This document shows positions 44,956-45,924 of a DNA stretch of 64,000 bases, piece after piece (positions within the stretch are counted from its first letter, which is position 1; every line of letters starts with the position of its first letter). The position numbers and the translations under genes are program-made. Source of the DNA: Escherichia coli 042 (GTDB taxonomy: Bacteria; Pseudomonadota; Gammaproteobacteria; Enterobacterales; Enterobacteriaceae); NCBI RefSeq assembly GCF_000027125.1, contig NC_017626.1; one strand, given 5' to 3'. Below the pieces are notes generated by a model. That model had not been told where the DNA came from and ran no database searches. It was given only the letters and a program-made list of their open reading frames with translations.

Positions 44956-45924
44956 TCACGTCAGCAGCGAAAACGCTGAAAGCAGCGGGTCGGCGGCACA
45001 TAACGACTGAATTTGCTGGCGAACCAACAGCGCATTTTCACTGGTCCGCCAGCGTTCAAACATGGCAAAGAGGGCGAAAATATCCTCCTGCCGCAGCGGA
45101 GAACCATCCAGCGTCCATAAACTGATTAACGTGCGGAGGAGATAAAAATCGCACACCAGCGGGAAATAATTCGCCCCGTCAGTCTGCCCAATCACATCGT
45201 GGTAAAAGCGGTAAATCAGCCAGTTACGCATCATCCAGGGCGCGGTGGCAAAATGCAGTTGCCAGGTGGTTTGCCACTGCGTCTGAAGCTGCTGTTGTAA
45301 CAGGGCTTCGCTGTTAGCGTCATGCAGCGTCAGCAAAGGCATCTGCAACGGCAGCGAAGTTTTGCGCGGGCTTTCCGGCAGAATCGACCAGTCAAACGCA
45401 CAACTGCCGAGCAGCGTCATCAACTGGCGCGCCAGCTGTGGCACGGGCGGCAGCTGGGCGAACTGTGCCTGTAGCGTGCCTTTTTGTGCATGATCGGCCA
45501 GCGCCTGTGGCAGCGTCGTCAAGCGGGCAAGAATATCTCCGTCTCTGCCCGGCATTTTGCTGGCGCGGGAGAGCAAAATCCCGACGGCGTACAGTGAAAG
45601 CTCCGGGGGTAAATCGGGGAGCGTAAGGGTGCTCAAAATGACCTGGTTTACTATCGCATCGCGCGCGGAGAGTTCTGCGGCATTATCTTCCGCCGGGCGG
45701 TAGGTGAGCTGTAAATCAAAGGCCCTGGCATCGTTGAGCACCGCTTCGCAGCTTTCTGGCTCTGTCAACATCAGGCTCTGGCGAATCTCGTTTTTCCACA
45801 CCTTGCGGATGTACAAAGGCGAATCGGGATATTGCGCCATAAATTTGCGCACGTATTCCGGTTCGTAACATTCAATAAAACTCATAGGTGGCTTCCAGTC
45901 TTTCTTACTTTGCGGAATGTGCAA
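44956..45924 (-). CDS. Hypothetical protein of unknown function embedded in the flagellar cluster
   Basis: 322-aa ORF (alternative start MSFIECYEPE at 45885); no recognisable motif; GC content like the surrounding Flag-2 genes. Confidence 0.5.
   Translation of the reverse strand: MHIPQSKKDWKPPMSFIECYEPEYVRKFMAQYPDSPLYIRKVWKNEIRQSLMLTEPESCEAVLNDARAFDLQLTYRPAEDNAAELSARDAIVNQVILSTLTLPDLPPELSLYAVGILLSRASKMPGRDGDILARLTTLPQALADHAQKGTLQAQFAQLPPVPQLARQLMTLLGSCAFDWSILPESPRKTSLPLQMPLLTLHDANSEALLQQQLQTQWQTTWQLHFATAPWMMRNWLIYRFYHDVIGQTDGANYFPLVCDFYLLRTLISLWTLDGSPLRQEDIFALFAMFERWRTSENALLVRQQIQSLCAADPLLSAFSLLT

Follow-up and report, generated by a model that had tools for sequence, protein, structure and literature searches.

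Lysine methylase or transferase partner? The cysteine-less FliB_C-family protein LafV of the Escherichia coli 042 lateral-flagellum locus

What role can be assigned to a flagellar protein that is named after an iron-sulfur methylase and carries none of the conserved cysteines of that enzyme? This question is raised by a gene of Escherichia coli 042 located in a stretch of 64,000 nucleotides of contig NC_017626.1 (assembly GCF_000027125.1), hereafter the window, in which the Flag-2 lateral-flagellum locus begins at about 28.7 kb and runs onward. The gene is lafV of variable region 1 (VR1) of the E. coli Flag-2 locus; it is already known and named, and its function has so far only been inferred from FliB. 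What is new is that the protein, annotated as a lysine-N-methylase, falls short of what experiments have shown this enzyme to need, and that it represents a cysteine-less variant coupled to a glycosyltransferase of family 2 (GT2). The product is tentatively read here, with a probability somewhat short of an even chance, as a non-catalytic FliB-derived partner of a flagellin glycosyl/glycerophosphotransferase. The features on which the argument turns are the following.

44956..45885, minus strand: lafV coding sequence, 309 amino acids plus stop, a short cysteine-less FliB_C-family protein of the cytoplasm; its start is shared with homologues and RefSeq.
42306..44777, minus strand: three-domain transferase directly 3' of lafV, 823 amino acids by the RefSeq start; the maximal open reading frame extends to 44849 (847 amino acids).
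41758..42162, plus strand: TagD-like glycerol-3-phosphate cytidylyltransferase (PF01467; TIGR01518 at E = 5.6e-33, below its cut-off).
46013..46441, minus strand: lfgN, the FlgN chaperone gene (PF05130, E = 2.9e-19), upstream of lafV.
59922..60836, plus strand: lafA, lateral flagellin, 304 amino acids, presumed substrate of the modification genes.

The order of genes in the window is lfiJ (41321-41755), tagD, the transferase gene, lafV and lfgN (46013-46441), with lfgM and lfgA nearby, and lafV thus occupies the VR1 position between lfiJ and lfgN; orthology and synteny were found in 23 of 23 species-representative loci. A first-pass annotation of this DNA had described the frame as unassigned and devoid of any recognisable motif. 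Both descriptions are superseded: the gene had been published as lafV and had received a lysine-N-methylase annotation from homology, nearly all homologues with 226 or more amino acids have a precomputed PF27117 (FliB_C) domain, and the FliB profile NF038110 matches LafV at E = 1.8e-11, under its curated cut-off (44.2 bits against 85). A local Pfam scan of LafV returned no match, the scanned copy being without the PF27117 model. Homologues form 98 clusters in a set of 5.8 billion proteins, from Escherichia, Pseudocitrobacter, Citrobacter, Phytobacter and others, under source names such as "lysine-N-methylase", "hypothetical protein" and "lateral flagellar associated protein". Among 5426 complete E. 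coli genomes, lafV is present in 1278 and intact in 1277, its RefSeq name varying between "lysine-N-methylase" and "hypothetical", and the window protein shares 84-92% identity with its counterparts in E. coli Flag-2 loci. With 98 homologous clusters, an intact frame in 1277 genomes and a ratio of nonsynonymous to synonymous substitution rates (dN/dS) of 0.13-0.29, the open reading frame is far more than a chance frame.

De Maayer et al. 2020 (PMC6993521) found that 342 of 592 flag-2 loci have, between lfiJ and lfgN in VR1, a FliB orthologue "previously termed LafV", a name they attribute to Ren et al. 2005. This distribution disposes of the circumstance under which the first-pass annotation would have abandoned its proposal, namely absence from all other Flag-2-type loci. 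The same text takes LafV as a sign that methylation of Flag-2 flagellin is common and calls for experimental confirmation; it treats LafV as a FliB orthologue, and in the portion available neither the loss of cysteines nor the pairing with GT2 is mentioned (PMC6993521).

The requirements of FliB have been defined in Salmonella, where the enzyme depends on S-adenosylmethionine (SAM) and holds an oxygen-sensitive [4Fe-4S] cluster through an N-terminal CX4CX3CC motif (C17, C22, C26 and C27), and where replacement of these four residues by alanine abolishes both the cluster and methylation (PMC8598068). Eight highly conserved cysteines were described for FliB, no known methyltransferase domain was detectable, the flagellin-dependent product in its assays was S-adenosylhomocysteine (SAH), and the protein was soluble only as a fusion to a flagellin fragment (PMC8598068). 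Salmonella enterica FliB and LafV share about 260 homologous residues, an N-terminal "PEYV..F" strand, the FliB_C domain and a location in a flagellar locus, and neither possesses a known methyltransferase domain or a solved relative, for FliB according to its authors' statement (PMC8598068). They differ in that FliB has about 400 amino acids, eight cysteines and the [4Fe-4S] site, whereas LafV has 309 amino acids, about 80 residues fewer, and none of the eight cysteines; FliB is encoded alone beside fliC, whereas LafV adjoins a GT2 gene and the flagellin LafA is without exposed lysines. The NF038110 profile, 373 positions in length, is matched only at positions 106-363, corresponding to residues 30-280 of the window protein, a span of about 260 residues.

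A search of 1.84 billion representative proteins with a LafV-family profile recovered only 160 relatives, which fall into two length classes of about 297-324 and about 390-437 amino acids, the latter being FliB proteins. In an alignment of 95 full-length FliB_C members, the 55 long forms have eight invariant cysteine columns (CX4CX3CC and four more), the 23 short cysteine-bearing forms have four (CxCxxC and a position equivalent to FliB "LSCPE"), and the 17 short cysteine-less forms, which include the window protein, have none. At the columns of CX4CX3CC the cysteine-less forms show gaps or A17, none of the eight FliB cysteine columns is filled in the window protein, the column common to the long and the short cysteine-bearing classes is occupied by E42, and C46 falls in a different column. 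The "PEYV..F" strand is common to all three classes, and the short forms are therefore FliB minus about 80 residues of the cysteine-rich region rather than N-terminal truncations. All 23 lafV genes recovered by a genome scan of species representatives are cysteine-less, a scan that used the cysteine-less alignment and by construction reaches only this clade.

In a neighbour-joining tree constructed without bootstrap, the short forms make up one clade in which the cysteine-less proteins are sister to the short cysteine-bearing ones, and in this unbootstrapped tree the cysteine-less forms are monophyletic except for one independent loss (P0125). Since the cysteine-bearing long forms constitute the outgroup, the loss of cysteines is derived, and the derived clade covers Escherichia, Citrobacter, Enterobacter, Phytobacter, Leminorella and others. 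A truncated pseudogene was considered and rejected as an account of the short form, whose architecture is conserved down to 19-40% identity with dN/dS below 0.3. As a separate observation, P0123 (positions 5001-6218 of L034, GCA_016649425.1), of all long FliB_C proteins the nearest to the short forms, bears a hybrid motif, CX4CxCxCC; its gene lies outside flagellar loci, flanked on one side by groES and on the other by an EpmB-like radical-SAM gene that adjoins efp.

Long and short forms have few conserved polar residues in common, namely S37, N221 and, in part, Y225 and Y228, and R35, N80 and Q81 are found in the short forms only and not in long FliB. The best motif present in all three classes is N221...Y225..Y228-H229..F-P, of which the window protein keeps N..Y..YH with IG instead of FP. 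The short FliB_C proteins of Pantoea, Rouxiella, Paramixta, Buttiauxella and Pandoraea (for example P0248, P0247, P0115, P0124 and P0133) resemble LafV in length (297-324 amino acids) and in R35, N80 and Q81; they differ in that the short cysteine-bearing forms keep four cysteines and could hold a metal or cluster, whereas the window clade keeps none. On sequence grounds, the protein is a member of the FliB_C superfamily and an orthologue of LafV that fails the features defining a FliB enzyme.

Structure prediction gave a confident AlphaFold2 model of LafV (predicted local distance difference test, pLDDT, 90.1; predicted template modelling score, pTM, 0.89) with a mostly helical body. Among solved structures, Rossmann-type and SET methyltransferases included, none is similar to the predicted fold, and a sequence search of the PDB with the family profile returned only a chance match to AsnC (E = 0.41). 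Compared with export chaperones of about 120-145 amino acids (PF05130, PF02561 and PF05400), LafV is long at 309 amino acids and matches none; lfgN and a fliS homologue are present as separate genes in the window.

The gene neighbourhood points to the adjacent transferase, which consists of a GT2 domain, for which PglI and TarS are the closest proteins of solved structure, a middle domain without a Pfam match that is distantly similar (30.9% identity) to a Pantoea gene weakly annotated as GT25, and a CDP-glycerol (cytidine diphosphate-glycerol) glycerophosphotransferase-like (TagB-like) domain. A homologue of the transferase lies directly 3' of lafV in all 23 genome-scan loci, which represent Escherichia spp., Pseudocitrobacter, at least nine Citrobacter, Enterobacter, Phytobacter, Leminorella and the isolate RIT691; lfgN lies directly 5' in 22 of them. 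Across these loci identity in the GT2 domain stays at 67-97%, although that in LafV falls as low as 40%, and the same pairing recurs in further loci of E. coli, E. fergusonii and C. rodentium. In the RIT691 locus (L030), two lafA copies (8241-9146 and 14612-15517) flank the tagD-lafV-transferase block, and the modification genes lie between flagellin genes and not next to lfgN.

The short cysteine-bearing forms, like LafV, are paired with GT2, and TagD/TagB-like genes accompany them in Paramixta and Buttiauxella. A 468-amino-acid GT2 gene lies directly 5' of lafV in Pantoea allii, its GT2 domain about 52% identical, and in Pandoraea a 497-amino-acid GT2 gene, likewise about 52% identical, overlaps lafV by 4 bp beside a 300-amino-acid flagellin and motAB. 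VR1 of Rouxiella consists only of a 502-amino-acid GT2 gene and lafV, overlapping by 14 bp, and Paramixta has a 478-amino-acid GT2 gene followed by lafV, TagD and TagB, the GT2 partners of these two genera being identified as Pfam GT2 genes. The independently cysteine-less P0125 is found in a GT2-LafV-TagD arrangement, and in Pandoraea and the metagenomic contig L036 the short FliB_C gene accompanies the GT2 gene and not lfgN. Gene order differs between the classes, running GT2 then lafV on the lfiJ side in the cysteine-bearing Flag-2 loci examined and lafV then transferase on the lfgN side in the window clade. In contrast, canonical long fliB stands alone between fliC and fliA, and because the pairing recurs across loci, unlike stand-alone fliB, the short FliB_C protein and GT2 form a conserved module. 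This favours the first of two options offered by the first-pass annotation, that of an accessory factor for flagellar modification, which is the better supported of the two given the relation to FliB and the adjacency to GT2 in 23 of 23 species-representative loci. Taken together, the transferase domains and the adjacent TagD would predict a glycan carrying glycerol phosphate, and we know of no description of such a glycan for enterobacterial flagellins. De Maayer et al. 2020 (PMC6993521) suggested the same, and De Maayer and Cowan 2016 reported FliB islands and glycosylation islands to be essentially mutually exclusive in flag-1.

The composition of the presumed substrate is of equal relevance. 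All six lysines of LafA lie in the terminal helical regions; residues 141-220 contain none and are 35% Ser/Thr. In a comparison of 100 full-length cluster representatives, those with source names coming from genera with cysteine-less LafV, the central region contains 0-4 lysines (none in 33%, one in 37%), no lysine column exceeds 24%, and Ser plus Thr account for 25-39% of the centre, whereas the FliC encoded beside canonical fliB has 13 central lysines. With a centre rich in Ser/Thr and poor in lysine, LafA thus exposes sites suited to O-linked modification but hardly any, or none, at which a lysine could be methylated. Surface-exposed lysines in the substrate flagellin, which are part of what characterises FliB, are lacking in LafA.

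The evolution of lafV within this block is informative for any functional reading. Compared with four E. coli loci, lafV shows dN/dS of 0.17-0.29 and amino-acid identity of 90-92.6%, against 0.01-0.19 and 93-99.7% for most neighbouring genes, and dN/dS is 0.19 against Citrobacter and 0.13 against E. fergusonii at a synonymous divergence (dS) of about 2. The gene is constrained by purifying selection yet encodes the fastest-evolving protein of the block. Across 21 LafV homologues 48 columns are invariant, and length is kept in several genera even at 40% identity; in the Escherichia clade four amino acids are deleted and IG replaces the conserved FP. Identity between the window and Citrobacter is 53-56% for LafV, 86-92% for LafA and 76-79% for the GT2 domain of the transferase. 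Co-variation of LafV with its flagellin was considered and rejected, as LafA is identical in E. coli CB6837 where LafV differs and is far more conserved between genera.

Cassette exchange of lafV is evident. Against E. fergusonii (L006, CP042942.1), most of lfgAMN and of the transferase gene is 91-98% identical, but between 44780 and 45999 the value drops to 52-83% in lafV and further in the intergenic spacer beside it; the E. fergusonii LafV has 64% amino-acid identity with dS of about 2.0, against about 0.2 in the flanks, where LfgN and the transferase are 94-95% identical. The lafV of E. fergusonii is thus a single-gene cassette replacement, confined to lafV, in a locus whose lfiJ side has been replaced by VgrG/Rhs genes. 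E. coli CB6837 matches the window at 100% on either side of about 39.25-48.75 kb but at only 85-97% within it, with LafA identical, and positions 39250-48750 are a recombinant patch of about 9.5 kb centred on VR1 (tagD, transferase, lafV and lfgNMA). The lafV allele of the window occurs in none of 5426 complete E. coli genomes, the best match having 96.5% DNA identity, and the fadE/yafV flank is 100% identical to E. coli strains.

How these observations may be combined is best set out as a mechanism. LafV would have lost the iron-sulfur-dependent methyl transfer of FliB and would retain a non-catalytic role of FliB_C, most plausibly the binding of unexported flagellin in the cytoplasm; it would act as docking or specificity partner of the adjacent GT2/middle-domain/TagB-like transferase, which, with CDP-glycerol from TagD, would decorate the exposed, Ser/Thr-rich part of LafA ahead of its export. 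That FliB binds flagellin is plausible, since FliB is soluble only when fused to a flagellin fragment. A works-like analogy is provided by FlmG of Caulobacter crescentus, in which a non-catalytic N-terminal flagellin-binding domain confers specificity on a cytoplasmic flagellin O-glycosyltransferase and which is made before flagellin export (PMC7591256); the likeness goes no further than function, as the binding module is fused in FlmG, whereas for LafV a separate methylase-derived protein is proposed. A broader evolutionary scenario, more doubtful than the role of LafV itself, would have an iron-sulfur flagellin methylase lose its cysteine-rich insert and subsequently all cluster ligands, with LafV-type short FliB_C proteins becoming pseudoenzymes that serve as the separate docking subunit of a two-protein flagellin O-glycosyl/glycerophosphoryl transferase.

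Several points weigh against a non-catalytic partner. The docking role is inferred, and an AlphaFold2 model of LafV fused through (GGGGS)6 to transferase residues 1-470, computed from a paired alignment of 12 rows, gave pTM 0.45 with pLDDT 40-60 in the GT2 region and lent it no support. The conserved polar and aromatic motif N221...Y225..Y228-H229..FP could be a SAM- or lysine-binding site, in which case catalysis could reside in FliB_C, and the inactivity of the FliB cysteine mutant could stem from misfolding and not from chemistry. Additionally, the E. fergusonii LafV, only 64% identical between flanks of 94-95%, argues against a tightly co-evolving interface between LafV and the transferase, and because LafA is 86-92% and LafV 53-56% identical to the Citrobacter proteins, the divergence of LafV does not track the flagellin, which speaks against such an interface with LafA as well.

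The main competitor of the non-catalytic partner is an active, cluster-independent lysine N-methylase with its SAM site in FliB_C, acting on the D0/D1 lysines of LafA, on another flagellar protein or on the glycan, which we consider rather unlikely. Clear homology to FliB over about 260 residues speaks for it, as do the N..Y..YH..FP motif in all three classes, of which the window protein keeps all but FP (IG), the many clade-invariant polar residues, which exceed the needs of a plain scaffold, the formation of SAH by FliB, which matches ordinary SN2 methyl transfer, and the naming in the literature and RefSeq. However, all eight invariant FliB cysteines are gone and the four-cysteine FliB mutant is inactive, the NF038110 score is half of the cut-off, the exposed region of LafA is without lysine and none is conserved among 100 homologues, the predicted fold is like no solved structure, Rossmann-type and SET included, and short forms are always tied to GT2, unlike stand-alone fliB. 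Small cysteine-rich proteins of the PF03692-like kind exist in enterobacteria, and LafV might instead be one half of a split FliB to which such an iron-sulfur protein gives the cluster in trans, the missing part corresponding to the CxxCxxCC-like, PF03692-like metal-binding module (PMC8598068). This is very improbable, and it was down-weighted because the window contains no gene-like frame with a cysteine cluster: CX2-4CX2-3CC and CxCxxC occur in the 64 kb only in short out-of-frame open reading frames. Moreover, no cysteine-cluster partner lies beside lafV in at least 30 loci, and the cysteine column in the retained region (FliB "LSCPE") is replaced by D, E or S.

Two further accounts dispense with modification altogether, and each is improbable. 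LafV as a decaying, functionless methylase remnant in a locus often inactive in E. coli would agree with its being the fastest-evolving gene of the block (dN/dS up to 0.29), with the four-residue deletion and the IG for FP in the Escherichia clade, with the missing lfiJ side in E. fergusonii, and with the reported deletion or disruption of Flag-2 in many strains (PMC6993521); against decay stand dN/dS values that remain far under 1 whatever the distance (0.13-0.19 at dS of about 2), the retention of length and of 48 invariant columns to 40% identity across several genera, an intact frame in 1277 E. coli genomes, a conserved sigma-54-type promoter upstream and a confident AlphaFold2 model with pLDDT of 90. 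The other account, close to the second option of the first-pass annotation (a structural or chaperone protein), would make LafV a lateral-flagellum export chaperone, structural component or regulator unrelated to modification; its place directly 3' of the chaperone gene lfgN and the anti-sigma factor gene lfgM, its mostly helical body and the report of FliB as membrane-proximal oligomers receiving flagellin (PMC8598068) can be cited for it. That option found no support, as neither the sequence nor the fold of the protein is like that of FlgN, FliS, FliT or any protein of known structure, and it has 309 amino acids. In addition, its only detectable relatives are FliB enzymes, it accompanies the GT2 gene and not lfgN in Pandoraea and contig L036, and its location in the variable region instead of the conserved core, with 342 of 592 loci possessing it (PMC6993521), makes it dispensable for building the flagellum.

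The delimitation of the gene also required revision. The first-pass annotation gave an open reading frame of 322 amino acids; this frame exists on the minus strand at 44956..45924 with a TTG start, but the start codon was mis-set. All homologues, 309-315 amino acids in length, begin with MSFIECYEP, found here at the ATG at 45885, and the RefSeq length for lafV in E. coli is 930 nt. The true coding sequence is therefore 44956-45885, because homologues and RefSeq share this start, GGAAG precedes the ATG, and the TTG chosen by the ORF finder (45924-45922) falls inside a promoter element of the sigma-54 type, CGGCACGCTTATTGCA. Two further statements of that annotation hold, the GC content of the frame (0.555) being equal to the Flag-2 mean (0.555), and the gene lying between the three-domain transferase (42306-44849/44777, minus strand) and flgN/lfgN (46013-46441, minus strand). 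The signals around lafV are listed below.

45892..45896, minus strand: Shine-Dalgarno-like GGAAG, 6 nt 5' of the ATG at 45885, read from the sequence.
45920..45935, minus strand: sigma-54-type -24/-12 element CGGCACGCTTATTGCA, upstream of lafV.
45974..45992, minus strand: hairpin GCGGAAACGGATTTTCCGC, just 3' of the lfgN stop codon, read from the sequence.
44813..44948, no strand: imperfect palindromic repeat of about 136 bp, REP/boxC-like (repetitive extragenic palindromic), between lafV and the transferase gene, with 35-nt arms that are 83% complementary.

The segment GGAAGCCACCT-ATG is kept in Escherichia and Pseudocitrobacter loci. With at most one mismatch to TGGCACGNNNNTTGCW, three sites are found in the 64-kb window against 1.1 expected by chance (45920-45935, minus; 47580-47595, plus; 60994-61009, plus), and they lie directly 5' of lafV, lfgB and the fliD homologue, respectively, each in the correct orientation, which is consistent with control of these units by LafK/RpoN. 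At up to two mismatches the pattern is not enriched in the window (10 found, 15.7 expected), and the argument uses only the sites with at most one mismatch together with their conservation across loci. The core nGGCAyG-N4-TTGCn is present upstream of lafV in 21 of 23 related loci, where the remaining intergenic sequence has diverged, and in the two loci without it lafV starts within about 30 nt of lfgN. A scan of 44600-47700 for sigma-70 promoters returned no sites. Apparently, lafV is transcribed with the downstream transferase gene from its own sigma-54-type promoter, and the hairpin GCGGAAACGGATTTTCCGC, conserved in Escherichia, Pseudocitrobacter and E. fergusonii, is a possible terminator or attenuator separating lfgAMN from lafV. 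The repeat at 44813-44948 is GC-rich and holds CCCTCTCCC..GGGAGAGGG hairpins; a query spanning it matched a median of six places per genome in 4857 of 5426 E. coli genomes, as for a dispersed repeat, which probably accounts for the multiple placements of that query.

Elsewhere in the window, a patch of low GC content (0.41) at 57883-59487, before lafA, contains three genes that appear to be cargo within or close to variable region 2 of Flag-2.

57883-58227: Gp49/RelE-like toxin.
58237-58536: helix-turn-helix antitoxin-like gene.
58594-59487, minus strand: OmpR-type winged-helix regulator.

Low GC content (0.38-0.46) with strongly positive GC and AT skew was also found at 10000-20000, upstream of the fadE region. 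Two open reading frames of Flag-2, at 56833-57810 (plus strand, 325 amino acids) and 62777-63088 (plus strand, 103 amino acids), had no Pfam match; the former is named "FlhF" by RefSeq in CB6837, a name to which the Pfam scan gives no support.

LafV is named a lysine-N-methylase in many genomes, and common methylation of Flag-2 flagellin has been argued from it. If the cysteine-less form cannot methylate, both the annotation and the inference of methylation would need revision in Escherichia, Citrobacter, Enterobacter and their relatives, and if the pseudoenzyme reading is true, the "flagellin methylation" of more than half of enterobacterial Flag-2 loci would be a mis-annotation. The series from eight cysteines in about 400 amino acids, through four in about 310, to none in about 310 constitutes a natural experiment on which part of FliB, itself structurally unsolved, performs the chemistry and which part binds flagellin, and the strict pairing with GT2 turns LafV and its transferase into a testable two-protein system that may decorate the lateral flagellin.

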